Below are positions 6,917 to 41,627 of a DNA stretch of 64,000 bases, one piece after another (the stretch's first letter is position 1; each line of letters opens with the position of its first letter). Source of the DNA: a virus. The translations under genes and the position numbers were made by a program. The stretch covers positions 6,937-70,936 of IMG/VR virus record IMGVR_UViG_3300003320_000410; one strand, given 5' to 3'. The notes under the pieces are model-generated. The model was not told where the DNA came from. It ran no database searches and was given only the letters and a program-made list of their open reading frames with translations.

Positions 6917-6974
6917 TGTGGTAAGGGTGGCTCTAATAGATTGGGAATATTGTTTTGCTCATAATTTTTCATAC

Positions 6975-26476: not shown

Positions 26477-26813
26477 CGTTCGTTCTTCTCGCTATTGATT
26501 GTGGTGTTATAGGAATAATTCGCTTGGCGTCCTTTTCTTCATCTCCCGTAATGCCAGCAGCATCGCCTAATGTTTTTATAGCAACTGCCAAATCTGCGGC
26601 ATCTTTCCAAATTACTTTCAATCTATCAAACGTCTTAGACTTTGGGTCATCCAATTCTATTTTTATCAAATCTGTATTATTTAATAATTGGGCCATTTCC
26701 CACGCCTTTCTAACTAAACTATAATATAGTTTAGCAGCTCCGTTTTCTTCATACTTAGCCACTAATTTTTCAAGTTCATCAACCCTATTTTGAAGCTCTT
26801 CAATTCTGCTCAT
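26469..26813 (-). CDS. Putative terminase small subunit
   Basis: Small helical protein overlapping the terL start. Confidence 0.45.
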   Translation of the reverse strand: MSRIEELQNRVDELEKLVAKYEENGAAKLYYSLVRKAWEMAQLLNNTDLIKIELDDPKSKTFDRLKVIWKDAADLAVAIKTLGDAAGITGDEEKDAKRIIPITPQSIARRTNDV

Positions 26814-27705
26814 TACAAATATTTTTCGTCTTTTTATTTCTATAATTCACTCCATCATATTTAGCCCCTTTGCTTATATTATCCACTTTCCACAATGGCT
26901 GTAAATTAGTATAATGGAAACATTTCAATTGTTCTTCAACCTTCGTTAGATCAAAGCTAGAGCATGGCTTTATGTGATCAATGTGAATATCAGATATATT
27001 AGCCCAAGTCATCCCTTTTTTAAATTTACTTTCTATGTGAACCTTAAGAGTTTCTTTGTCGCACCCAACCAATTCTGAAAAAGAATTTCTTTTATACTTT
27101 TCACCTCCAAGACTCTTTATGGCTGTCCTCAATCTAAATCTTAATCTTCTAGTAATTATATATGCAGGATCATTATCCTTTCTATAATTATGCCTTTGCA
27201 TCCGCCTGGCATTTAATTTTATTTTATTCTTCTGCACATACTTTTTTCTACTTTCTTTATTTTCAGGCTTATCATTCCATTCTTTTTGCTTTCTTAAAAC
27301 CTCCTCTCTATTTTTTAAATATTTTTCCCTTTTTTGTTTTTTTATCTTTTCTTTATTCAAAGGGTCAGAAATATATTTTTTATAGTGGGTTTTAGTGTAC
27401 TCTTTCCCTTCTTCACTATTTCTCCATTTAGCATTATTGCATAATAATTCATTTCTATTCTCCCAATATTTTCTCTTTCTGTACTCTTTCATTCGTTCTT
27501 TATTTTCTGGTCTGCTTCTCCATTCTAATGATCTTTTTATTTCCTCTTCCCTGTTATTCAAATATTTACTCTTTTTATATTCAGCTGAGCAGACTTTACA
27601 CATCGGCTGAACTAAGCCTGTTATAGAAGATTTTTTGTGGTATTCATTTTTATTCTTTTCAATACCACATTTTGTGCATACTTTTGTTTCTTTCCTTTTT
27701 CTCAT
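26800..27705 (-). CDS. HNH-type endonuclease with N-terminal CxxC fingers and charged repeats
   Basis: CTKC..CKVC; C-terminal HIDHIKPC...CFHYTNLQPLW..DN. Confidence 0.8.
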   Translation of the reverse strand: MRKRKETKVCTKCGIEKNKNEYHKKSSITGLVQPMCKVCSAEYKKSKYLNNREEEIKRSLEWRSRPENKERMKEYRKRKYWENRNELLCNNAKWRNSEEGKEYTKTHYKKYISDPLNKEKIKKQKREKYLKNREEVLRKQKEWNDKPENKESRKKYVQKNKIKLNARRMQRHNYRKDNDPAYIITRRLRFRLRTAIKSLGGEKYKRNSFSELVGCDKETLKVHIESKFKKGMTWANISDIHIDHIKPCSSFDLTKVEEQLKCFHYTNLQPLWKVDNISKGAKYDGVNYRNKKTKNICNEQN

Positions 27706-27708
27706 TTT

Positions 27709-28800
27709 CTATAGAAATTTTTCATCTTTTAACATTTTGGCTGCTTGTAATCTGGCCTGAACATTTTTATAAATACTTCCATACGAAGCAGGACGAAAAT
27801 TCATATCAAGAAAATTGTCATTTTTTAAATAACCCTTCTCCTTATAAGACTGTATCATTTTACGAACATTCCCAGCCCCCCCGTTATATGCAGCCAATAA
27901 AAAAAAGTCTCTTTGTCTAGGTGTCAAAATAATATTATTTTTAGATAAATAATTATCTAAATCATCACCTGCTGCTCGTAAAACAGCACTTTTAGCCATC
28001 AATGCATCAGCATCGGTCTTGAAGGCAGCCGCATTTAACTTCTCTCCTTTTTCGTTTTCGGCATAGAACTTAGTAAATCTATCTGAAAATCCTTTTGGCA
28101 AATAGCCCTTCTTTTCCAAGGCAGCGGCCTGATCTGCAAACATGTCAAGGCCATAGTTATAGAATGAATCGACCGGATATTCAGCAGCTTTTTCTTTATT
28201 TTTTTCTGACCAATTTACATAGGCTTCACTAGCATTATCTGAGTATTTGGGGTCTACAGCGCCAGACATACCCTCTTCCATTGCAGAACCATACAATAAT
28301 GCAGGGTCAATTTTGTTGAATTGTGCAGCTTGCGTAACTGCATCCCTAACTTTGCCACCTGCTATAGGAAATTCGTTGTCCAATTTATTACCCCAGTTAT
28401 ATCGTCCTTGTTCTCTTAAATAAGGATTGGATGCATATTTTACTTTTAACTGATCGGCGGTGGGATGTACTGTCGGTGGGGTGGTGCCGGGTGTTGTTGT
28501 CGGAGGGGCAGTAGCTGGGATGCCTAAATATCTCTCCATATCTGTTCCAAAATCAATTGATCCTTTTTTGAATTCCGGGTACTTCATGGAGTTACCACTT
28601 AAATAAGAGTCGGGCAATCCTTGTTTGGCGTACGATAATTGCTCGGGTGTTAGATTACCGAAACTATTACCATTCTTGAATTGAGATATTTCATACTGAG
28701 CATGTGGGGCCAATTCAGGCGGGGCATTATTATTCCAATCCGTTCTTTGTTGAACTGATAAAGGAGTATAGTTTTCTGGTTGTAATAGTTCGTCTGTCAT
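27709..28800 (-). CDS. Virion-associated lytic transglycosylase (SLT-like)
   Basis: IDPALLYGSAMEEG, YGL and LAAYNGG lysozyme-fold motifs; follows ejection proteins. Confidence 0.7.
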   Translation of the reverse strand: MTDELLQPENYTPLSVQQRTDWNNNAPPELAPHAQYEISQFKNGNSFGNLTPEQLSYAKQGLPDSYLSGNSMKYPEFKKGSIDFGTDMERYLGIPATAPPTTTPGTTPPTVHPTADQLKVKYASNPYLREQGRYNWGNKLDNEFPIAGGKVRDAVTQAAQFNKIDPALLYGSAMEEGMSGAVDPKYSDNASEAYVNWSEKNKEKAAEYPVDSFYNYGLDMFADQAAALEKKGYLPKGFSDRFTKFYAENEKGEKLNAAAFKTDADALMAKSAVLRAAGDDLDNYLSKNNIILTPRQRDFFLLAAYNGGAGNVRKMIQSYKEKGYLKNDNFLDMNFRPASYGSIYKNVQARLQAAKMLKDEKFL

Positions 28801-31800
28801 CTTCCTGGTGTTATTATGTATTGTTCGCTTGCGCCACCGCCGCCTCCAGAACCGCCGCCTTTAGATTGATATGTCTGTACTCCAACACCAAACATAGAAG
28901 GAATACCCACGCCTAAAGCACTCCCTATTCCACCATCATCGTAAGCGGTTTTTATATCACCCAATACCAACGGTAGATTTTTAGATGCTTCACTGGTAAA
29001 GGTTGCGGGTTGCCCGGTTACATCCGTCCCTTTTAAAATGTCTATCGTTTCGGCAGGTACAGGCGCAAGTTTGCCTCTTAGGAATTGGAATAACACATCG
29101 GCCCTTGTTTGTCCAAATTGCCCCTCTCCTGTTAATTCTTTAATGTTTCCAGATGTAGTTGATTTTTTTTCGCCAGTTATTAGCTGGGCAGCCAATCGCA
29201 CATACTGCTGAAATCCACCCCATATATCCCATCTTGTATTGCCGACTTTTATTTTTCCGAAATCGGAACTACGCGGGTCGTCTTCTACATCCGCCCCTCC
29301 CATCTTTGCCAGTCCTAAGACCATTGTCCCCAATCCTATGAATTTAGCCATGTCTTTAAAATATTGTACCCGCACTTCTCTGGGTACTTTTGAATAGAAT
29401 TTAGGGTTTGCCCAATTCGTCAGCAAATTTAATCGAGAGGCTATCAAACGTGGAGAGAAAAACATAGCATTCAAAATAGGAGCCGATTTTTCCATGACTT
29501 CCGGCATTTTACCCCGCCCTGTTGCGGCTCCTACGTAATCGGCCATAGCTTGGTAAAGTTCAGGGCTATTGTCAAAGGTTTTACCATCGGCCAAAAATGC
29601 GTCTTGTGCCCGCCTAAATATGTCTACCCGCATTTTATTCAAAAATCCTACATATGCCCGTTCAGAGCCTTTTATAAGTTTACCTATTCCCAAGGGTAAT
29701 TTCTCTGCAAAGTTACTCATGAAGGCTTCCTCTTTTGCCGTAAGTTTTGGATCGTGCGGATCAGATAAAGGTAGTCCCACCTTCTGCATAATCTCATAAT
29801 CTGGTGCTTCTTTCAAGTCTGCGAACCATCGGTCGAATACTTTCTGAGAACCCGCCATTTTGAACATCGTAACAAATTGGCTTCCCAAATCTTTTCTCCC
29901 CTTAGAGTCAAACAATTGTTTCGTTACGCCCCATATACCCTGTCTCAGCGGGGCCGAAAAGTCCATAGACGACATTAACGCCCTGGGTGTATTGAGCACT
30001 TCCGCTCCCGTATCTATCAATTTCTGAACTTTGGGACGGTTGGCGTATTGCTGCTTTAATAAACCAATTTCCCGATCTGATTTAGCCTTATTTAAGGCAT
30101 CTCTTGCTTTTACCGCGTCCTTGTATAGATTAGGATATTTTTCTCTTACTTCTGGATTATCCAACAATGGCACCTTTTTTTCATCCGGCCCAAAATCACC
30201 CTTTGCAATTTTTTCTTGCACCTCTTTCAATTCCTTCTTATTCCTATTGATCATGGATTCCAGCCGCTGCCTTGTTTCTGTTTTGGGTTCCGTGTAAAAA
30301 GTATTGGCCTCTTTTTCATCTTTTCGACGTGTACGAATAATATCAGCTATTTGCTTTTTTAAATTCGTTATCTGCTTATTTCGTTCGACCTTCTTTTTTT
30401 CGTTCTTTGGCTCTTCCCCTCTTTGTAGTTGTCCCAACCGGTTCAAAAGAGCGGCTTCATCTTTTAGGTCTCTGGCTTTGGCGGCTAATTCATTTTTGGT
30501 AGCTTTTTTAGGATTGTACTCTCCGGCTATAATATCGTGTACATCCTTTTCCGTAATGCCGGGGAGAATATCCTTTAAATCGGAGTGGATGCTTTTTACG
30601 ACATCCTCCAATTTATCAATACCCTCTTCAAGAAGGCTTTTCATCAACTTACCTACATGCGGCGCAATAGCCGTTAATTGAGCAACACCAGGAACGGAGG
30701 CTGTTAATCCTCCTTCTCCTTTGGCTACTTTTAACAAATCAGCCCGCATGTCCGCCAATATATCTTTCCGCTCTTTTACATAATCAGCATGGGATTTTTT
30801 AGAAACTCCTTTTTTGCTCCCCGATTTTTTAATTTCATTCTGAGCTTTGAGTTTAGCGTTTTCTTCTTCCAAATCTTTAATCTTTGCCTCGTAGTCTGCT
30901 TGCTTTTGTTTAATATCGTCATATTGTGCCTTAACATCTGCTTTTTGCTGGTCTGTTAATTCATCTACTCCCAATGCATCTTTTTCTTGTTGGATATAGT
31001 CCGACAGAGATTCATCATTTAATACGAATAGCCGTCTTGCTCGAAAGGCCGCCCCTTCTTCAGAACCTACTTTATCGCTGGCCCTGGAAAGTAGTTCCCG
31101 CATGTCCTGTAATCGGTCGAACTCAGGATCAGAAATATCCATATGGTTCAACTTCGCTTTTAATGCCCCTACCATTTTTGAAAAAGCTACCTGTTCAGTA
31201 TCCGTAAACCCTTCATCCGTATCCAATACGCGGTGCGCTTTCCCTACAAAATCATATCCTTTTTTAATAAGATCGTCCGCTTCTGATTCTAGCTTAACAT
31301 CGTCTTTAGTAGGTCTTGGCACACGCCTGCTGATTCCCATTTCTTCATAAATCTTTTCCGTATCGGCATGGGCTAATCGGGTTACATCTTGTGGTTCCGG
31401 TTCGAAGGGAAGATCATGCATGTTGGGCGGGATAGACCCTACTTTGCCCCCTTCTTGTTGCTCAGTTTCGCCATCCCCGGATGCAGGCTCCGAAGATGCT
31501 GATATATCATTGCCGCGTGTTTCTTCGCTTCCTTCAGCGGTATCCCCTCCTTCTTGAATTTGTCGCGGATTTTTTCGTACACTTCTGGCATTTTGTTTAA
31601 TTTTTAAGGTTATATCATCAATTGGTATTTCATGTACATGATGGTCTTGCGCTCCTTCTACATAGACAGTTTTCCCGTCTTGGCTTACACTTCTTACTTT
31701 CTGCGGTCCTTCGAAATGGGGGGAAACAACGGTATCGCCCGGCTGAATGGAGTTTTCTTTTTTTACTAACGTAGCCGGCTCCGGAGTCTTGGCATTTAAA

Positions 31801-34235
31801 TAATCTTGGGCAGCCTTTTCATTCCACTGCCTGCCATTTTTTTCATAAGCATCCCACAACATCATATTATTGGAATGATTCACAACAAGGGTACTAGGTG
31901 GTTCATTTTCTAATTCGGTACGCGCCTTTATTACCCGATCCTTATATTCGTTAAAAGATTCATTGATATGCTTTCCTTCAAATTCTTTTTCGTCCGGATG
32001 AGTTACGAAGTATTCTTGCGCCTTTTTAAATTCTTCGTCGCTGGCCTTATCGAAATCTCCAATATCCCATGTATTCAATTCAGGGCGGCTTTCGGTTTTT
32101 GCCCCTGTTTTTTCAGATACAATATGTCCCGTTTCCTTCGCCCGCTCTAAATCGGAAGTAATGATCTTTGTTACCCCTTTATCCTTTACCTCTTCTGCTA
32201 AACTATTCGCATCTTTCTTTCCTTCGGCGGATAAAACATTATCATTGGGGCCGCTCACTTTTCCTTGTTCATCGTCCTTGGTATTGGCATGGCGGGATTC
32301 CAAAAAGCCTTCATTTTCTGTTATATTATCATTTTCATTAATGTTTCCACGTGAAACGTTTGTCTCATTTTGGGAAACTTCTTTAGGCTTTTTATCCCTA
32401 GACAACTCTAAAATGTCATCATTGATAGCCTTGATCTTTTCTTTTATTTCAGTATGAAAGGCTTTGTCTGCGCTTTCTAACTGAAGTTCTAAGTCATCCC
32501 GGCGTTTGATCTTGTCATAAATTTTGGCCCTTGATTCATCGGTTACATTGTCGGGGATAGAAGTAGCCAACATTTTATGCTCTTCTATTTCCTTGGCGGC
32601 TGTTTGGGCTTCATCCGGCGTAATATGTCCTTGTAATATCTGGTTGCCCAATTCTTGGTTTATTTGTTCGGGGGTAGCTTTAGACAGCCCTTCCAATACT
32701 TGTGTCTTAACTCCTTTTGACAAGGCTCCCGTTCCTTTCGCAATAGCCGCCAATCCCAACGTAAATAACGCTCCACTCTCCATTGAATGAGCTATATCTT
32801 CTCCCGATGTATCATGCTGAATACCTTTCATGTCGGCCAGCTTGTTCTTAGCATCCTGAGCAGCACCTTGAATGAGTCCGACGGCCCCGGCTTCCCCTAC
32901 GCCTGTTGCTACTTGTTTTAAGGCCGATTTAAGAGCCGTTTTATACCCCTGCGCCAAACTAAACTTTGGGATCGGCATTTCTCCTATTTTGCCACCCATA
33001 TACATCATAGCGGCTCCTGAAATGGCATCAACGGCAGATTCATCCTTAGCCTGCCCATTAGCTTGCTTGTATGCATCCTCTGGGCTCATCCCCTCGTTAC
33101 GGAGCTGGTTGTAATATTTTTGAAGGGCATTTGCATAGGAGAGCTTTCGGAAGTCATTGCCGGATACGGCAGCAGATACAAACTTATCGGTTGCGGGAGC
33201 GAATTCTTCAGCGCCAGGGACCATAGCGGTTGCTGCACCTACTGCTTTACCAGCAAGCAATCCTTTTAAGGGTTGAGCAGCCATGCCGCCCGTTAATTCA
33301 GAAACAAATCCTTTGGGAACGGGAGTTGGTTCGTCAGGATCATACTCCGCCCTCCTTTTTTCCAATTCTTTTATGGCATCTTCTGGGGCCAGACTAGTGA
33401 AAAGACTATAATCTGCAAATCCTTTATTCTTTTCCTGCAATCCTGTTGCAATACTTTCCCAAGCATCCTCTGGCTTCATTAAATGACCGCCTTGTATATT
33501 GTACGTCAACTTGCCCTTTTCTATCTGTTGGGCATTGTGCAATATTTTGGAAGCGTTTTGTTCTCTATTGGCGGCATCTGCTACATATAAAGAAACTTGT
33601 ATTTGCTTGGCTTTATCTGGCTTTTTGTCGGCTATATTATGTAGAAATCCCCTAGCGGCTTGTTCGTTATTTTGAAGGTTTTGCTGAAACGCTTGTACAT
33701 CTTCAGGTGTTATTTGTACTTGTGGGACCGGAGCTGCTAATTGCTGTGCTGACTGCTGGGCTGCCGTTAATGGCTGATCGGTTTTAGGCTGTTGCGAATA
33801 TTGTAATAAACGTTGTTGTTCAGCGGCGCGCGCTTTTTGCTTGTGAATGATGTCCGGTATAATATCCTGATTGCTTTGAAATTCAGCATTCAGATGTTGG
33901 GCTGCCTTGTCTTGTACAGCTTTTAAATGATCTGCTGTAGTTCCGGGCAGCATTTTAGGCGTAGGACGTGGTATATTGGTTGCTTCGGAAAGAGGCTTTT
34001 GTTGAGGGATATTAGGACTTAGTTTCGGGATAGCGACTGAATATTTTGTCTTAAAATCATCCACCACTTTCTTGATATTCTCTTCCGGCTCTTTATTATC
34101 AATCATCTTTTGAACGATACCGTCTAATTTCTTCCTATTATCTTCAGATAATACAGATTTGGGGCCAGGGCCTTCTTGGTTATCCTGTCCTTCTCCTATT
34201 TCAGGCGCATCCATTATTTCCTGCTCTTCTGCCAT
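28797..34235 (-). CDS. Giant putative ejection/polyvalent protein (1812 aa) with internal histidine-phosphatase domain
   Basis: Size, position after muzzle; RHA, SDLERAKET and LVVNH motifs at about aa 643-800. Confidence 0.75.
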   Translation of the reverse strand: MAEEQEIMDAPEIGEGQDNQEGPGPKSVLSEDNRKKLDGIVQKMIDNKEPEENIKKVVDDFKTKYSVAIPKLSPNIPQQKPLSEATNIPRPTPKMLPGTTADHLKAVQDKAAQHLNAEFQSNQDIIPDIIHKQKARAAEQQRLLQYSQQPKTDQPLTAAQQSAQQLAAPVPQVQITPEDVQAFQQNLQNNEQAARGFLHNIADKKPDKAKQIQVSLYVADAANREQNASKILHNAQQIEKGKLTYNIQGGHLMKPEDAWESIATGLQEKNKGFADYSLFTSLAPEDAIKELEKRRAEYDPDEPTPVPKGFVSELTGGMAAQPLKGLLAGKAVGAATAMVPGAEEFAPATDKFVSAAVSGNDFRKLSYANALQKYYNQLRNEGMSPEDAYKQANGQAKDESAVDAISGAAMMYMGGKIGEMPIPKFSLAQGYKTALKSALKQVATGVGEAGAVGLIQGAAQDAKNKLADMKGIQHDTSGEDIAHSMESGALFTLGLAAIAKGTGALSKGVKTQVLEGLSKATPEQINQELGNQILQGHITPDEAQTAAKEIEEHKMLATSIPDNVTDESRAKIYDKIKRRDDLELQLESADKAFHTEIKEKIKAINDDILELSRDKKPKEVSQNETNVSRGNINENDNITENEGFLESRHANTKDDEQGKVSGPNDNVLSAEGKKDANSLAEEVKDKGVTKIITSDLERAKETGHIVSEKTGAKTESRPELNTWDIGDFDKASDEEFKKAQEYFVTHPDEKEFEGKHINESFNEYKDRVIKARTELENEPPSTLVVNHSNNMMLWDAYEKNGRQWNEKAAQDYLNAKTPEPATLVKKENSIQPGDTVVSPHFEGPQKVRSVSQDGKTVYVEGAQDHHVHEIPIDDITLKIKQNARSVRKNPRQIQEGGDTAEGSEETRGNDISASSEPASGDGETEQQEGGKVGSIPPNMHDLPFEPEPQDVTRLAHADTEKIYEEMGISRRVPRPTKDDVKLESEADDLIKKGYDFVGKAHRVLDTDEGFTDTEQVAFSKMVGALKAKLNHMDISDPEFDRLQDMRELLSRASDKVGSEEGAAFRARRLFVLNDESLSDYIQQEKDALGVDELTDQQKADVKAQYDDIKQKQADYEAKIKDLEEENAKLKAQNEIKKSGSKKGVSKKSHADYVKERKDILADMRADLLKVAKGEGGLTASVPGVAQLTAIAPHVGKLMKSLLEEGIDKLEDVVKSIHSDLKDILPGITEKDVHDIIAGEYNPKKATKNELAAKARDLKDEAALLNRLGQLQRGEEPKNEKKKVERNKQITNLKKQIADIIRTRRKDEKEANTFYTEPKTETRQRLESMINRNKKELKEVQEKIAKGDFGPDEKKVPLLDNPEVREKYPNLYKDAVKARDALNKAKSDREIGLLKQQYANRPKVQKLIDTGAEVLNTPRALMSSMDFSAPLRQGIWGVTKQLFDSKGRKDLGSQFVTMFKMAGSQKVFDRWFADLKEAPDYEIMQKVGLPLSDPHDPKLTAKEEAFMSNFAEKLPLGIGKLIKGSERAYVGFLNKMRVDIFRRAQDAFLADGKTFDNSPELYQAMADYVGAATGRGKMPEVMEKSAPILNAMFFSPRLIASRLNLLTNWANPKFYSKVPREVRVQYFKDMAKFIGLGTMVLGLAKMGGADVEDDPRSSDFGKIKVGNTRWDIWGGFQQYVRLAAQLITGEKKSTTSGNIKELTGEGQFGQTRADVLFQFLRGKLAPVPAETIDILKGTDVTGQPATFTSEASKNLPLVLGDIKTAYDDGGIGSALGVGIPSMFGVGVQTYQSKGGGSGGGGGASEQYIITPGR

Positions 34236-36061
34236 CAGTAGTTATATTTCTTTCTTAAATCCTCTGTATTTCCGGATGAGTTTTGTTTTAGATAAGCGGA
34301 TAGTTTCTCTTTATCTGGAAAAGTAACTTTCTTCGTTTTACCATCTGGTGTTTCTACGGTCAATGCATATTTGTCTCTTCCGAAGAAAGTAGTTACCGTT
34401 CTTACATCAACATCTTTAATGGTCCCGTCCGGCGTTCCTATTCCTTTTAAATCTCCGAAATTATCACTTTTCAGGGCCGTATCTATTTTGTTTTGATGCT
34501 CTTCATTAATACGATCAGAGGCGGCCGTAGGATTACCGGCTTGGGTAAACTTAGCGCCCTTGTACCCCATTTTATCAAGTAGGCCACTGACTTTATTGGG
34601 GTCAATGCCATTAGCTCCGGCAATCCTATTCATGAAGATGCCTATTCTGTTTTCTGGCCATTCTTCCAAGGTGACAGGTTTATTACCAGAAGCATCTTTC
34701 GTTTTGGACTGCTTCTCTACTAGGAGTGCCCGTTTGGTCGGATCATAGTATATGGATTTGAATATCTCTCCTTCGCTTCTACCTGATTTTAAACCACCAC
34801 CGGGAAAATAAGGAGTTACATCAATTACATTCCGACCATTCACGTCTTTTTGTTCTCCTTCCAAATAATCCGGATCATTATTGAAGATATTTCCAATAGA
34901 TTCAAGGGCGTTTGTCTTTACCTGTTTGCCTGATTTTGGAGTTTCTATATAATAATCTCCCTTTAGCTTTGTTGCCTCTTCGTATTTTTGGAGTTTTTTA
35001 AGCATTTCAGGATCACCACCTATATCCACCTTGATAGCCGGAGCTGTTTCTTTTTGTTGATCCACAGTTCTGAAGGTGCTTCTTTTTCTACGTTCCAATT
35101 CATCATGTAATACAGAACGAGCCATAGCGTCCCATTGCGGAGAGCCTTCAGCCGGTAATTGCTTTACGCCTGCTGCCCGGAAATGCGTATTCACTTGTCC
35201 CCTTATGTAATCCGCTATATCGGGATTGTGCTGCATAATGGCATTGAAATAACCTTTATCCAATGCTTGGTAGGGTTGGCCTGTTTCCGGATTGATCATG
35301 GGCTTGTTATCATCTCCTACTATGGGGCTCCCGACAACACCCAAACCTACAGGATTCCCCTGCTGATCTACCGCCACATTCCCATTTTGATCTCTCTGCA
35401 AATCTTCCCAGAATGGATGTTTGGCTTCGTATTTAACGTTTCGAGACCGCCCGGCATACGTCGTGGTGACATTACGGGAATAATCGGCCATCGGGGTTTT
35501 GTTCACAAAGTCATCTAATCCCTTGGATGTAGTGATGGCTTCCGGATTATTTTTAGCCACTTCCGTCACCCAGTTTGTTTCCGGGTCTACGGTTGTAATG
35601 TCTTTTAACTTTCCATCGGGTCCATAAAAGGCGGCTCTTTTGGCCTCTGTTTCTAACGCTTCTGGATTATATCCAGCATATCCTTTTAATTTCGAAATGG
35701 ATTCTTTTATATTTTGATTGATCAGTTTTGCCTTGGTGGAATATTCGTTCAATCGGGATACTTTTGGTCCCAGTGCCATCATAATATCGGGCGTAGATGC
35801 TCCTTGGGCGGCCAATTTTTGCCCTTCCTGTAACACGTCTTGAAATCCCGTTACGATTTGCGGATCGTAGGCAGTCCCGGTCAAATGATCTTTTGGATCA
35901 AGATAATCAGCCAGAAACTTTGATGTAGCGGATTTCCGGCCTTCTGCCTGACGAGCAACGGCATCTTGTTTATCGCTTTGCTCTTTAACTGTATCCGCAA
36001 GTCGATAAAGACCTTCTTGTTTATTTTCTGGCGTAATAAAATTACTTACATCCAATGGCAT
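34235..36061 (-). CDS. Putative ejection (DNA transfer) protein
   Basis: 608 aa between pilot-like and giant proteins. Confidence 0.5.
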   Translation of the reverse strand: MPLDVSNFITPENKQEGLYRLADTVKEQSDKQDAVARQAEGRKSATSKFLADYLDPKDHLTGTAYDPQIVTGFQDVLQEGQKLAAQGASTPDIMMALGPKVSRLNEYSTKAKLINQNIKESISKLKGYAGYNPEALETEAKRAAFYGPDGKLKDITTVDPETNWVTEVAKNNPEAITTSKGLDDFVNKTPMADYSRNVTTTYAGRSRNVKYEAKHPFWEDLQRDQNGNVAVDQQGNPVGLGVVGSPIVGDDNKPMINPETGQPYQALDKGYFNAIMQHNPDIADYIRGQVNTHFRAAGVKQLPAEGSPQWDAMARSVLHDELERRKRSTFRTVDQQKETAPAIKVDIGGDPEMLKKLQKYEEATKLKGDYYIETPKSGKQVKTNALESIGNIFNNDPDYLEGEQKDVNGRNVIDVTPYFPGGGLKSGRSEGEIFKSIYYDPTKRALLVEKQSKTKDASGNKPVTLEEWPENRIGIFMNRIAGANGIDPNKVSGLLDKMGYKGAKFTQAGNPTAASDRINEEHQNKIDTALKSDNFGDLKGIGTPDGTIKDVDVRTVTTFFGRDKYALTVETPDGKTKKVTFPDKEKLSAYLKQNSSGNTEDLRKKYNY

Positions 36062-36072
36062 AGTATATTATT

Positions 36073-36684
36073 TTAAGAACCTCCATAACCCCATGCGGCT
36101 GCTGGTGTTGGTGGCGTAGGTTTGCCGCCTCCAAAGCCTCCCGACAACCCGAAATTAGCAAGGCCGTATCCCATATTGGAAAAACTTTTCCAAGCATTAG
36201 CGGTGTTAGCAGACTGAGCGCCCCTTATTTGTGCCAGATCGTTGAACCGACGTACCTGATCTTGATAAGCCTTATCTCCTTCCTGAATTTCTCCCTCTTC
36301 AGCACCTACATAGTTGCCGTAACGACGCTGGTAATCTTGCGCTTCTTGTTCGCTCAGTTTTTCAAATCCGGCATTCGTATTGGCTTGTGCGGCTGCATTG
36401 GCGGCAAGAGCCTGAGAACTATCTGTAGCATTACGTTCTACACCGGCCATTGTGTTAGCCTGGGAGCCATATATATTTGCTTGGGCGTATGCGGCACCGG
36501 GGGCGCGGGCATTCAAAAGATTTTGCGCTAGGGCTAATCGACTGGCGGCAAGGGGATTTTTTTGATAAACCGGGTCTTGGCTTATCAATTCCTGAAGTCG
36601 TTTATTAGCCCCAAAAGAGCCTATTAGTCCCCCTATGCTTCCCACCACCCCTAAGCCTAGCCCGGCTATCATTGACGGGTCCAT
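36073..36684 (-). CDS. Putative pilot/ejection protein
   Basis: Gly-rich hydrophobic N-terminus, Ala/Gln/Asn-rich helical body. Confidence 0.6.
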   Translation of the reverse strand: MDPSMIAGLGLGVVGSIGGLIGSFGANKRLQELISQDPVYQKNPLAASRLALAQNLLNARAPGAAYAQANIYGSQANTMAGVERNATDSSQALAANAAAQANTNAGFEKLSEQEAQDYQRRYGNYVGAEEGEIQEGDKAYQDQVRRFNDLAQIRGAQSANTANAWKSFSNMGYGLANFGLSGGFGGGKPTPPTPAAAWGYGGS

Positions 36685-36711: not shown

Positions 36712-39700
36712 TCATGTTGTATGCCCCAAGCTGATCGAAAATCCGAAGGTAAAAAAGCGGAGCTGCAAAGGTCCTTTTGTCGGATTAAATTGCAACATCG
36801 TTTTCAAAGCTAAGGCTCTCATTTTATTTCCTGTCAGCAATCCGTTAAAATCCATTCCGGTTGCTGTTGGTTGCAATTTGTTCCGATACATCGCCGCATA
36901 CATCTGCCCCTCTTTTATTTCGAAATCAAAATCCGTTAAATCACTAGCCTGCTCTTCCAGATCATATTGTTCAAATTCATCCAAAGAGGGTTCAGTGCGA
37001 AAATAAACTAATGTAGGTCGATAATTTCCTTCTATGGATACGTTGTTATAAACTTTGGGTCTATTCGGAATTTGGTTGCCCAAAAACATAATCTTTGGCG
37101 TTTTGGCTTCTCCGTAATACGTACAGGGGAATACATTGCTATTATGTTCGTATATCTTTCCGGCCTTGAATGAAAATACTTTATTCTGCATCCCCGTCAA
37201 CCATTCAGGCGAAAAACGGTAAACCCCTTGCCAATGATTGGGCTGGGCATTTAATTTATACACCAGCGTTTTCCCCTGTCCGTCCCATATATCGAATGGA
37301 TAAATCATATCGGGATAATCCGGCAAATATCCTTTCGGTGGAGTGGCTAATACTTTTGGAACCGATATTAAAAGCTCCCAGTTATTTGAATCGACACAAG
37401 AAAATATAAATGGACGGCTACCCAATGCTTCAATAACCGATTGTGACATAGACGCATATTGCGCACAGAATAATTTCCAATAACGAGTCATTTTGTAATT
37501 AGAGATAGGGAATAGCCCATTCGCCGAATATTGAATCACCTTTCCATTCAGCACATCCACCCAAAATACGTTCCCCCTGAATTCTACTACCGATTCCGGC
37601 GAAATAGTCCCAAAGTTTCCCTTCAGCACATTTATCGTTCCTATCACTCCACTGGCTTGAGCCAAAAATGCATCTCCCGTAGTGCTCAATACCTGTGTTT
37701 CTCCCATATAAAGAGATGTGGTATCTTTCACGCAAATCCCCAGCATGATAGTTCCTATCTCACCTTCTACCTTAGAGGTTAATTGCAGTTTTTTTAAGGG
37801 GCCACATTCCGGATAAATATCTTTAGTATCCAGCGCATCAAAAGTAGACAACCCATTGTTTTTTGAACCTAGAATAAAAGTATTGCTAAAGGCAATGCTA
37901 CCTGTTTTTGTTACCTGCCCAATGTCGTCGATAAAGTTGGGCCTCCCGGCTGAAGTAAACCAAGGAAAATAAAATTTATCGTTCGGACTCATCCCTTCCG
38001 TAAAGTAATTAGTAGTAGAGTTAGTCCTTGAAAAGATAAACACATCCCCTACAATACTGCCTGTCAGGGCGCTGTATTGTCTGCTATTGGTTCCGGGATT
38101 AAGGACGGGGAATATGTTATTTTCTTCGAAATAGGGTTCGTTCGATTGCCGTTTGTACGGTGTATAAATCTCATAAATTCCTTCCGTGGTGGCCAGAGAA
38201 CCGACATCCATTAATTGGCAGATAATCCATTTACCCGACTCCCCTATGATGGAGAGATTATAAAGTGTCCCATGTATATATGCTTCCACCAAATCTCCTT
38301 CAGAAAAAGAATACCCTTGCGCATGTGAATTTAAAAAGGTAAGATCAATGGCTATCCCTGCCAAATCAGAACTATACGCTGTTGTGGTAAAAGTATAATC
38401 GCCTGATGTATCTTTGTCAGCATAAATAAACACTCCTAAACTTTGCAGGAAAAACCGTGTTCTGAGACATTGGGTAATATTAATCGAATAGTAATACGCC
38501 CAATCCGGTATTTCATTTAAAGCATTTGCATTGCTCAATAGCCAAGTAATAGCTGTTATATAAGTATAAGCACTTAACCCAGTATCCGGAGTAGTAAACA
38601 ATAAAGAAGGATTAGTAAGAATACCGCACTCTCTTCCGTAATTATCTTTGAATGAAATGGATACTTGGTAAGAGGCATTTGATTTAAATGCCGTACCCAC
38701 TACGGAAGAAACGGGTGTTGCCGAACTTATTATGATACTGGCGGCCGATTGATTGATATAATCCGTAGGCGCAATAGCTATCGCACTTCCCCGAAAGCTA
38801 TTCACCATTTGACTGAATGTAGACCCACGGTATACTAAATCGGTAGCATTGACGCTGGGCGGGAAAGGAGGCACTGATCCGCCTGTCCATGTGTACCAAT
38901 ATTGGCCCGTAGGCGGATTGCCGCCAAAATTAGTAGTCGTAAATAACACATAGGCGCTTCCGGAAGCATCCGGCGCGGTGGTGTGATATTTCAACAAAAA
39001 CCAATTCCCGATTATATCGCTCGATGATCCTGAAAATGTTTGAGAAGTTGAAGAAAGAGAAAGAGATGTACTAATAGGTGTGTCGTACCCGATTTTATAA
39101 TTACCTAAGAAAAGCCTGTTTTTAGCTGTCTCTAATGCTTCAGCAGTTAACGGGACGCTATCGAATAATTTGACGCTATAGGCGTCGTCCAGTGGAACAC
39201 CAATCTGGTCATTGTAAAACCGGAATGTCAATGGTGTTGTTCCTGCATTGTGAGCGTTTATTTCAGCCAAATCCGTAGGATTCGACTTCTTCCATGACTT
39301 TATGACAAAGAACTTATTGGTAGCTAAAAACTTTACTACCATGTCTATTTGAATGACATCTTGATCAATTGGCTCTGCCGTTGGTATATTTACATCTATG
39401 CAGTTAAAAGTATCTCCATCAGCATTGTAATCGGCTAATAAGGATTGACCCGATAGAGTAGATATTTCGTATTGCGAATAGCCATACCGGTAGCAAAACT
39501 GTTGAGATGAATTAGCAATAAGATTGGCGAAAACCGTTGGCGTTGTCTGCGTTTGTTTAACTTGGATAGGTGGCAGCCCTGGTTGCCTCCGTATGATAGT
39601 CAAATTTGATTGATCCAGTGGGATAGTATAAGCGGGTACATCTGAAAAGGATGGCCCTCCATTCATTTTTATGCCAGCGTCGATATTGATTCGTCTGGGT

Positions 39701-40134
39701 TCATTTTGATCATCATTAACCCAATACACACACCCGTTTATGACGCGGGCTGAATGTATGATTTTATTCTTGTCCCAATTCAGGCCGCCTGTTATTTGGC
39801 TTTCCAGTAAAACAACATACCAAATGTTAGCCGTCAAATCATAACAATCTATTCGGCTTCCGGCTACATCGTACGTAAATTCAATGATTCGACTATTTAC
39901 TTCATCTTCAGCCGCACCAATGGTAACAGCAGTGGGTGAAGTTAATGCGGGATTGGGTATTAAAACATTCGCACCTAAGCTCTCTAAAATACCTGTTTCC
40001 CCGCTATCTGTCGTAAGAGTTCTAACCTCTTCGGCGTTAATCCACTCGTTCAATTTAACAGCCATGGGCGCATCGTCAAAGTTCCCCCCGAAACCTTGCC
40101 CTTCCCCACCAAAGTATTTTTTTTCTCTCTCCAT
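36712..40134 (-). CDS. Tail muzzle/stabilisation protein
   Basis: 1140 aa, beta-rich, directly after ring-like genes as in crAss-like and P22-like tails. Confidence 0.65.
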   Translation of the reverse strand: MEREKKYFGGEGQGFGGNFDDAPMAVKLNEWINAEEVRTLTTDSGETGILESLGANVLIPNPALTSPTAVTIGAAEDEVNSRIIEFTYDVAGSRIDCYDLTANIWYVVLLESQITGGLNWDKNKIIHSARVINGCVYWVNDDQNEPRRINIDAGIKMNGGPSFSDVPAYTIPLDQSNLTIIRRQPGLPPIQVKQTQTTPTVFANLIANSSQQFCYRYGYSQYEISTLSGQSLLADYNADGDTFNCIDVNIPTAEPIDQDVIQIDMVVKFLATNKFFVIKSWKKSNPTDLAEINAHNAGTTPLTFRFYNDQIGVPLDDAYSVKLFDSVPLTAEALETAKNRLFLGNYKIGYDTPISTSLSLSSTSQTFSGSSSDIIGNWFLLKYHTTAPDASGSAYVLFTTTNFGGNPPTGQYWYTWTGGSVPPFPPSVNATDLVYRGSTFSQMVNSFRGSAIAIAPTDYINQSAASIIISSATPVSSVVGTAFKSNASYQVSISFKDNYGRECGILTNPSLLFTTPDTGLSAYTYITAITWLLSNANALNEIPDWAYYYSINITQCLRTRFFLQSLGVFIYADKDTSGDYTFTTTAYSSDLAGIAIDLTFLNSHAQGYSFSEGDLVEAYIHGTLYNLSIIGESGKWIICQLMDVGSLATTEGIYEIYTPYKRQSNEPYFEENNIFPVLNPGTNSRQYSALTGSIVGDVFIFSRTNSTTNYFTEGMSPNDKFYFPWFTSAGRPNFIDDIGQVTKTGSIAFSNTFILGSKNNGLSTFDALDTKDIYPECGPLKKLQLTSKVEGEIGTIMLGICVKDTTSLYMGETQVLSTTGDAFLAQASGVIGTINVLKGNFGTISPESVVEFRGNVFWVDVLNGKVIQYSANGLFPISNYKMTRYWKLFCAQYASMSQSVIEALGSRPFIFSCVDSNNWELLISVPKVLATPPKGYLPDYPDMIYPFDIWDGQGKTLVYKLNAQPNHWQGVYRFSPEWLTGMQNKVFSFKAGKIYEHNSNVFPCTYYGEAKTPKIMFLGNQIPNRPKVYNNVSIEGNYRPTLVYFRTEPSLDEFEQYDLEEQASDLTDFDFEIKEGQMYAAMYRNKLQPTATGMDFNGLLTGNKMRALALKTMLQFNPTKGPLQLRFFTFGFSISLGHTT

Positions 40135-40889: not shown

Positions 40890-41627
40890 TTACTTATATT
40901 TAAAAATGAAACCGTGCGATGTTTTATTTTTACCCTTTAATATGTAATGTATATTATTAGGATGGATTCCCAACTCCGACGCTGCGGCAAGAGTAGAAGG
41001 AAATTCTTTAATAAATATTCCATTACTATCAAATTGTATTATTGGTTTTCGGACAGATTCGCCTCCCTTTTTAAGGTTATTAACAATTCCTATCTTATCA
41101 TGCCTATTCTTTGCAGCAATCGACTGCTTTAATTTCACCACAGGATTTGCAAACACTTCTCTCATTTTAGCTTTCTCTTTTGGATCATTCCATCTTTTTA
41201 ATTGCGATGCTGATAATTTATTTCTGGACGCTGGATTAGCCCATACTTTTTTAGAGGCTTCTGATCTTCTAATTCTTGCCTCCTCTGTAAATTTTATACC
41301 AGAACCTCCATCACCTCCATCTGTTAAATTCATCCCATTTTCATTAGGCCACCTGTTTTTATTTGACTTATAAAAGTCTATCCAAAATTTTTCTCTCTCA
41401 AATGCGAAATATTCGGTTGAATGCATTTTTTCAATCTCCTCTTTAATATGCGCTTCCCACCCATACTTGCAAATGGATGCATACATAAGTCTTTGATGCT
41501 TGCACTCCAATCTCATGTATTTGCCCATCCTTTCATTGAAATCTCTTGTTTTACCAATATAAACGCGCCCTTTAGGGTTCGTTATTTTGTAAATGCTCCA
41601 ATGTCTGAGTTTCTTTTCTACGCTCAT
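40890..41627 (-). CDS. GIY-YIG homing endonuclease with NUMOD1-like C-terminus
   Basis: IYKITNPKGRVYIG; IIQFDSNGIFIKEFPS..AA. Confidence 0.85.
   Translation of the reverse strand: MSVEKKLRHWSIYKITNPKGRVYIGKTRDFNERMGKYMRLECKHQRLMYASICKYGWEAHIKEEIEKMHSTEYFAFEREKFWIDFYKSNKNRWPNENGMNLTDGGDGGSGIKFTEEARIRRSEASKKVWANPASRNKLSASQLKRWNDPKEKAKMREVFANPVVKLKQSIAAKNRHDKIGIVNNLKKGGESVRKPIIQFDSNGIFIKEFPSTLAAASELGIHPNNIHYILKGKNKTSHGFIFKYK

Follow-up and report, generated by a model that had tools for sequence, protein, structure and literature searches.

We describe a giant phage protein that carries a histidine-phosphatase domain in a slot which, in related proteins, is filled by other enzymes or by nothing at all. 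The protein, P0001, is encoded in a 64,000-nucleotide (nt) stretch of viral DNA (the window), positions 6,937 to 70,936 of the IMG/VR record IMGVR_UViG_3300003320_000410; the surrounding record measures 72.4 kb and has an estimated completeness of 95%. P0001 is one stop-free open reading frame (ORF), 28797..34235 on the minus strand, of 1812 amino acids (aa) and 0 cysteines. The phage is probably podovirus-like, of Bacteroidota, and from a root metagenome. On balance, and with modest confidence, we favour the reading that P0001 is a polyvalent cargo or ejection protein whose phosphatase would act on a host substrate after injection.

A preliminary description of this DNA had recognized a histidine-phosphatase domain inside the giant ORF, and this is borne out. 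The Pfam family His_Phos_1 (PF00300) matches aa 648-789 (nt 31869-32294) with 82.8 bits (E 3.3e-23), against a gathering cut-off of 21.7 bits, and the excised region scores 87.5 bits; the match is far beyond chance. Among PHROGs, P0001 matches phrog_12933 (E 4e-12), for which no function is annotated. An AlphaFold2 (AF2) model of aa 636-890, based on an alignment of 150 relatives, has a mean predicted local distance difference test (pLDDT) score of 87.7, reaching ~98 over aa 645-825. Foldseek against the PDB returned solely histidine phosphatases at probability 1.00 (FBPase-2, iPSP1, CobC, GpgP and PhoE), with template modelling (TM) scores by target of 0.6-0.7, and against Swiss-Prot models it placed GpmB at the top (E 1e-11). 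A profile of the clade of related domains described below matches PhoE (1EBB/1H2E) with an E value of 6e-33. The domain had been placed at 31830-32310, which is the right location; the full structural domain (Table 1) extends slightly past the lower of these bounds. By sequence and predicted fold, the module is thus confirmed as a real but unusual branch-1 histidine phosphatase, compact (~185 aa), confidently modelled and cysteine-free. All 13 matches to NCBIfam equivalogs (CobC, GpmB, dPGM, PspA, SixA) fall below their cut-offs, with cobC scoring best (63.3 against 162.9) and SixA reaching 20.7 against 74.5. Since these scores are all far below the cut-offs, the substrate is not readable from homology.

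The motifs that had been quoted for the domain (RHA with His649, SDLERAKET, ESFNEYKDRV and LVVNH with His787) are all present and correctly numbered. The phosphate-pocket set of R648, H649, R698 and H787 is complete, with H649 as the predicted phospho-accepting nucleophile, and E759 is present within NESFNEYKDR. The replacement of the acidic residue in the L-x-E-x-x-x-G motif, which reads LNTWDIG in P0001, also holds: phmmer and profile alignments set T722 against the catalytic Glu of FBPase-2 (E327), CobC and PhoE (E83). Six positions after the nucleophile P0001 has Asp655, where Asn is usual.

An exhaustive HMMER search with aa 636-832 over 1.84 billion cluster representatives gave 1594 matches with E<=1e-3, of which 219 have E<=1e-10. 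The best 149 comprise 80 proteins of at least 1000 aa (the longest 4369 aa), 26 of 500-999 aa and 43 small ones, and by BLAST 119 of them share only the phosphatase with P0001. Clade carriers whose gene context was examined are phage-encoded; the stand-alone relatives lie on short contigs with small unnamed ORFs, which does not settle their origin. We aligned these best 149 matches with P0001 and counted residues over the resulting 150 sequences. The nucleophile His is found in 147, the R698 position is kept in 148, the H787 position in 139 and the Arg of the first motif (the R648 position) in 125, the full R-H-R-H tetrad being complete in 117. At the canonical acid position the clade has Thr (65 sequences), Pro (35), Ser (20), Ala (17) and Glu (10), followed by Trp in 140/150. 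Between P0001 and its nearest relative, P0002, the phosphatase is the best-conserved segment, at 84% identity compared with 44-79% elsewhere. On this alignment the predicted Glu-less Thr-Trp active site is a clade trait and not decay, and the conservation pattern of the pocket argues for a functional pocket that would work with a different acid or with none. Candidates for a replacement acid in P0001 would be D724, E697, D655 and E759. Proton donors differ between families of the histidine phosphatase superfamily (PMC12051542). Within the clade, a subgroup (P0010, P0013, P0024, P0033, P0037, P0053 and P0064) has S-E-H-G in place of S-R-H-[AG], the first pocket Arg being changed to Glu and the nucleophile His retained; some of these EHG-bearing members may have drifted.

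The phosphatase sits in a protein of clearly modular layout. At least 374 giants of 1000-2600 aa came up as homologs in a word-indexed search, and segment mapping divides them into an N-domain (aa 1-620 in P0001), a variable slot (621-929), a middle region (930-1300) and a C-domain (1380-1812). Among the homologs, the slot can be as short as 25 aa or exceed 800 aa. Pfam families in 82 scanned variable regions were His_Phos_1 (15), Kinase-PolyVal (2), ParB_N (1) and TPR (1), and across at least 120 homologs the slot holds His_Phos_1, Kinase-PolyVal, ParB_N, a permuted histidine phosphatase, or nothing. The permuted phosphatase occurs, for example, in P0003 and P0004, which are ~60% identical to P0001 overall: profile positions 77-185 of the clade hidden Markov model (HMM) stand ahead of positions 5-80, with the C-half (TW motif, GE[ST]F, second His) preceding the N-half (RHG, second Arg). 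The relatives P0005-P0009 have no phosphatase module. In other giants a phosphatase of the clade occurs together with SNF2/ResIII/Helicase_C, Eco57I methylase, Zeta-toxin and 2H domains, and SNF2, methylase, Zeta-toxin and 2H-type domains are typical of polyvalent proteins (PMC5512222). Judged from these sequences, the P0001 family has several exchangeable enzyme cargoes, and the phosphatase is one of them. We also observed a module of the form …K-G-S-x-Y-…-N-x-T-T-R-N-K-A-A-R… at ~aa 905-1010 of P0022, beside the kinase, and at ~660-760 of P0053, beside the phosphatase; it belongs to no Pfam family and looks like a further mobile slot component.

The link to the virion comes from gene order, remote homology and composition. 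The late genes flanking P0001 all lie on the minus strand. Read in the direction of transcription, they start with three ring-sized genes, followed by genes for proteins of 1140, 203 and 608 aa, P0001, genes for 363, 301 and 114 aa, TerL (phrog_6681), the portal (phrog_6547) and a SU10-type major capsid protein. The P0001 gene shares 1 nt with the gene upstream and 4 nt with the one downstream, which makes it part of a late structural operon. The product of the 1140-aa upstream gene is homologous to gp97 of Cellulophaga phage phi38:1 (E 6e-17 and 4e-15), where gp97 (1324 aa) is followed by gp98 (132), gp99 (200), gp100 (549) and gp101 (1691); the corresponding sizes here are 1140, 203, 608 and 1812 aa. 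The relatives L003 and L004 show the same succession, with ~1300, (142), 220-230 and 470-520 aa before the giant gene. All of gp97-gp101 are annotated 'structural protein', a status taken from GenBank, since a phi38:1 proteomics paper makes no mention of gp101; the labels probably stem from virion proteomics (Holmfeldt et al., 2013). HHalign of 75 N-domains against 29 gp101 relatives gave a probability of 96.7% (E 3.3e-10, score 99), compared with E values of 0.2-0.4 for reversed-sequence controls. The HHalign comparison of the P0001 middle and C-domains with the gp101 family was negative. BLASTP found nothing between P0001 and gp101 or between the 608-aa gene and gp100, and neither the 1140-aa gene nor the portal retrieved any sequence from the PDB.

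Cysteine is avoided across the P0001 family. P0001 homologs are cysteine-free in 117 of 120 cases and gp101 relatives in 24 of 29. In the window, four genes (203, 608, 1812 and 363 aa; 27709-36684 on the minus strand) form a cysteine-free block of 2986 residues in total, flanked by structural genes with 12 (1140-aa gene), 13 (TerL) and 7 (portal) cysteines. This abrupt contrast bounds the putative cargo block sharply. The 14 other large ORFs of the late block have 62 cysteines in 7566 aa (0.82%); at that rate ~15 would be expected in P0001, and the Poisson chance of zero is ~4e-7. Such avoidance would fit a protein that crosses the oxidizing periplasm unfolded. In crAss001, ring proteins, muzzle, small cargo and giant cargo have been found in virions by mass spectrometry, and the cargo is proposed to leave the virion partly unfolded (PMC10172136). 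From the gp97 homology, the gene order, the gp101 homology of the N-domain, the cysteine avoidance and the parallel with crAss001 we infer that P0001 is packaged and injected. The earlier label of a giant ejection protein is supported indirectly, by the synteny, the N-domain, the cysteine-free block and the Kinase-PolyVal/ParB slot, with the packaging and injection that it implies standing as deductions from these.

How P0001 might work can be outlined as follows. A conserved scaffold of N-domain, middle region and C-domain presents, between the first two, a variable slot for optional enzymes. The protein would be made late and packed into the capsid or tail, and then be extruded in a partly unfolded state, reaching the host before the DNA or together with it. 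Once inside, the phosphatase module would fold again and dephosphorylate a host substrate via a phospho-His649 intermediate. Catalysis and substrate class we infer from the pocket: the loss of the acid Glu, with nucleophile and phosphate pocket kept in a compact domain, points to labile phosphates or phosphoproteins, so that good leaving groups (phosphohistidine, acyl phosphate, phosphoanhydride) or macromolecular phosphoproteins would be favoured over sugar-phosphate esters. Moreover, sister phages fill this slot with a protein kinase, which suggests the host phosphorylation state as a common target. A wider proposition, which we regard as doubtful and offer tentatively, is that the Glu-less 'Thr/Pro/Ser-Trp' phosphatases as a whole form an injected, phage-specific effector clade that strips labile phosphates at the start of infection. 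Candidate targets would be phospho-His or phospho-Asp of two-component, phosphotransferase or phosphorelay-type defence proteins, or phosphoanhydride messengers. The preliminary description had named host signalling, nucleotide messengers and kinase-based defence as early targets, and our results do not discriminate between these.

Several observations weigh against an injected, catalytically active phosphatase. P0001 has no general-acid Glu at the L-x-E-x-x-x-G position, and together with the EHG subgroup this makes a reduced or lost hydrolytic activity possible. Pfam finds no LPD, MuF or MPTase polyvalent hallmark in P0001, and the tie of the C-domain to LPD38 consists of features and a partial structural likeness. 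The homology between N-domain and gp101 is remote, its confident core spanning only ~110 columns around a Gly/Ala-rich segment. Lastly, the phage and its close relatives are known from sequence alone.

These points leave room for other explanations. The module could be a pseudo-enzyme, that is, a phosphate-binding or structural module that holds a host phosphoprotein, lipid A/lipopolysaccharide phosphate or DNA without turnover, or it could be a phosphate sink that traps phosphate on His649. The replaced general acid (T722, with Glu in just 10/150 clade members), the change of RHG to EHG in one subgroup and the incomplete tetrad in 33/150 members would suit such a role. Against it, the nucleophile His, R698, H787 and Thr702 are 93-99% conserved in scaffolds that otherwise diverge strongly, no other segment is as well conserved between close relatives as the phosphatase, and the proton donor varies among families of the superfamily (PMC12051542). 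We consider a non-catalytic module unlikely. A different doubt concerns packaging, which for P0001 is itself deduced: the protein could stay in the cell as a late assembly, scaffolding or metabolic factor, with the phosphatase serving phage metabolism. Stand-alone histidine phosphatases do occur in phages and giant viruses, and 43/149 of the nearest relatives are small proteins. An unpackaged protein nonetheless has against it the conserved position of the gene inside the tail-and-cargo block, the remote homology of the N-domain to a protein annotated as structural, the family-wide avoidance of cysteine and the Kinase-PolyVal domain of homologs, a mark of the polyvalent class, and we rate it as quite unlikely.

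Alternatively, P0001 could be ejected and its phosphatase act in the envelope or periplasm during penetration, on lipid A, undecaprenyl phosphates or phosphorylated glycans, comparable to the peptidoglycan-lytic domains of ejection proteins. Short-tailed phages have ejection proteins that pass through the envelope and reshape it (PMC8954989, PMC10172136), polyvalent proteins include envelope-directed enzymes (PMC5512222), and a protein without cysteine fits the oxidizing periplasm. The company that the phosphatase keeps speaks for the cytoplasm instead: the alternative occupants of the slot, an ATP-requiring protein kinase and ParB, are cytoplasmic activities, and the helicase, methylase and 2H domains found in clade carriers act on cytoplasmic targets. 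An envelope role is, in our judgement, about as unlikely as the other two readings. We thus continue to favour P0001 as an injected cargo protein with a phosphatase acting inside the host.

T4 Alt and the N4 virion RNA polymerase are examples of injected enzymes that work ahead of phage gene expression and decide infection success. A large conserved clade carried largely in giant proteins, a change in the active site and a slot common with a kinase together suggest that host phospho-signalling or phosphate-based immune signalling is a common early target. If the effector-clade proposition were true, the lineage would push host phosphorylation either way before phage gene expression begins. The polyvalent class is known; what is new relative to the searchable literature is the histidine-phosphatase cargo, along with the Glu-less Thr/Pro/Ser-Trp signature and the occurrence of both the standard and the circularly permuted form in a single slot. 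In our literature search, no paper dealt with a histidine phosphatase in a polyvalent or ejection protein, or with a phosphatase delivered by injection. Being small, confidently modelled and cysteine-free, the domain lends itself readily to expression and substrate screening.

The remaining regions of P0001 are listed with the other features in Table 1. For the segment after the phosphatase an SH3/KOW-like module had been suggested; AF2 does predict three short beta strands there (pLDDT ~77-81), and a Pfam search at E up to 1 gave no SH3/KOW match. This module is conserved in close relatives whether the phosphatase is present or absent. The C-domain is modelled with confidence (pLDDT 87, predicted TM score 0.86) and matches viral (hypothetical) clusters only. 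In 106 members it had no Pfam match, a profile search of PDB sequences was empty and Foldseek found nothing in the PDB at E<=0.001. Its likeness to an LPD38-type cluster is partial (TM 0.58 by target), and 13% of the members of that cluster carry LPD38. At the extreme C-terminus the family has a GGGSGGGxGA run followed, in most relatives, by a Y-x-I-K-E-W-K/Q tail, whereas P0001 ends in …YIITPGR; AF2 confidence is <50 here. This Gly-rich tail may be a processing or targeting signal.

Regarding the host, the portal is 23-26% identical to the portals of Flavobacterium, Cellulophaga, Tenacibaculum and Maribacter podophages, and this likeness suggests that the phage infects Bacteroidota. A genome collection holds 49 loci that encode the C-domain (L007-L055), all of them on contigs of metagenome-assembled genomes (MAGs) and 0 in isolate genomes. 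The MAG phyla are very diverse (Bacteroidota, Saccharibacteria, Chloroflexota, archaea and others). These are probably phage contigs swept into bins, which makes the host labels derived from the bins unreliable. In a phage collection, tblastn with the C-domain reached one uncultured record, and with the phosphatase three unannotated fragments. The stretch is present in one root metagenome DNA run, which may be the sample it came from, and the sequencing-run search listed no RNA runs carrying it. Homing-endonuclease-type genes break up the late structural block on either side of the cargo genes. A 98-codon ORF lies antisense to the phosphatase-coding region, and nothing marks it as a gene.

Table 1. 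Features of P0001 and of its genomic surroundings; nucleotide positions are those of the window, with the strand in brackets.
Feature	Residues (aa)	Position (nt)	Remarks
N-domain	1-620	32376..34235 (-)	Conserved; Gly/Ala-rich amphipathic segments
Histidine-phosphatase (branch 1) domain	645-825	31761..32303 (-)	Pfam, AF2 and Foldseek
RH[GA] motif (SRHAN)	R648-H649	32289..32294 (-)	H649 codon 32289-32291, CAT; predicted nucleophile
Second phosphate-pocket arginine (SDLERAKET)	R698	32142..32144 (-)	
Thr-Trp pair (LNTWDIG)	T722-W723	32067..32072 (-)	Thr at the general-acid Glu site, then clade-specific Trp
Second catalytic-pocket histidine (LVVNHS)	H787	31875..31877 (-)	
Small beta-rich module	830-875	31611..31748 (-)	Three short predicted strands
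Middle region	930-1300	30336..31448 (-)	Conserved; largely helical or charged
C-terminal domain	1380-1812	28800..30098 (-)	Conserved, mostly helical, Gly-rich tail
Gly-rich C-terminus		28800-28860 (-)	
Permuted phosphatase in homologs (clade HMM)	P0003:658-856; P0004:616-807; P0052:673-870; P0067:686-887; P0103:695-900		
98-codon ORF		32161-32457 (+)	Antisense
GIY-YIG/NUMOD-like gene		40890-41627 (-)	Homing-endonuclease type
1140-aa gene		36712..40134 (-)	Matches phrog_14478 'virion structural protein' and phi38:1 gp97; muzzle-like position
203-aa and 608-aa genes		34235..36684 (-)	Cysteine-free; positional equivalents of phi38:1 gp99 and gp100
363-aa gene		27709..28800 (-)	Cysteine-free; directly downstream of P0001; closes the putative cargo block
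301-aa HNH/endonuclease VII gene		26800-27705 (-)	Homing-endonuclease type

Comparison with known systems places the two aspects of P0001, enzyme and carrier, in different company. The domain has the alpha/beta/alpha fold of PhoE from Geobacillus (Bacillus) stearothermophilus (1H2E/1EBB), CobC, iPSP1, GpgP, FBPase-2 and GpmB, and has in common with PhoE-type enzymes the RH[GA] nucleophile motif, the second Arg, the second His and the GES motif. It differs in having Thr722, followed by the near-invariant Trp, where PhoE has E83, in having Asp for Asn at the sixth position after the nucleophile, and in being embedded in an 1812-aa phage protein, whereas PhoE-type enzymes stand alone. SixA, a compact phosphohistidine phosphatase of the same superfamily, would be a possible functional analogue if the target were a phosphoprotein; the match to it is weak and partial, and the domain does not belong to the SixA family.

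As for the carrier, the giant cargo of PhicrAss001 offers a parallel in gene order (gp45, gp46 and the giant gp47/gp49/gp50; Bayfield et al., 2023, PMC10172136). A PDB search with the 1140-aa gene detected no sequence similarity between the two phages, and the giant cargo of crassviruses is RNA-polymerase-related whereas P0001 is a scaffold with a phosphatase. Another is phi38:1 gp101, which occupies the same place after a gp97-type gene and two or three smaller genes. The gp101 and P0001 families have remotely homologous N-domains, are nearly cysteine-free and combine a conserved with a variable half; they differ in lacking any BLAST-level similarity, in their unrelated middle and C-domains and in that none of the gp101 family members found has His_Phos_1. 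With the polyvalent proteins (Iyer et al., 2017, PMC5512222) P0001 shares giant size, multidomain build, a place among late virion genes and swappable enzyme modules, down to the Kinase-PolyVal and ParB that its homologs carry in the same slot. Kinase-PolyVal is found mainly in (pro)phages of Bacteroidetes and Verrucomicrobia, and LPD38 is phage-specific (PMC5512222). P0001 departs from these proteins in having a single recognizable catalytic domain and in lacking any Pfam match to MPTase, MuF or LPD. Their catalogue covers kinases, ADP-ribosyltransferases, GNATs and nucleases; the word 'phosphatase' is absent from the main text (PMC5512222), and a histidine phosphatase is thus not part of it. 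The closest enzyme to the domain is the PhoE-type broad-specificity phosphatase, and the closest system to P0001 is the phage-type polyvalent protein class.

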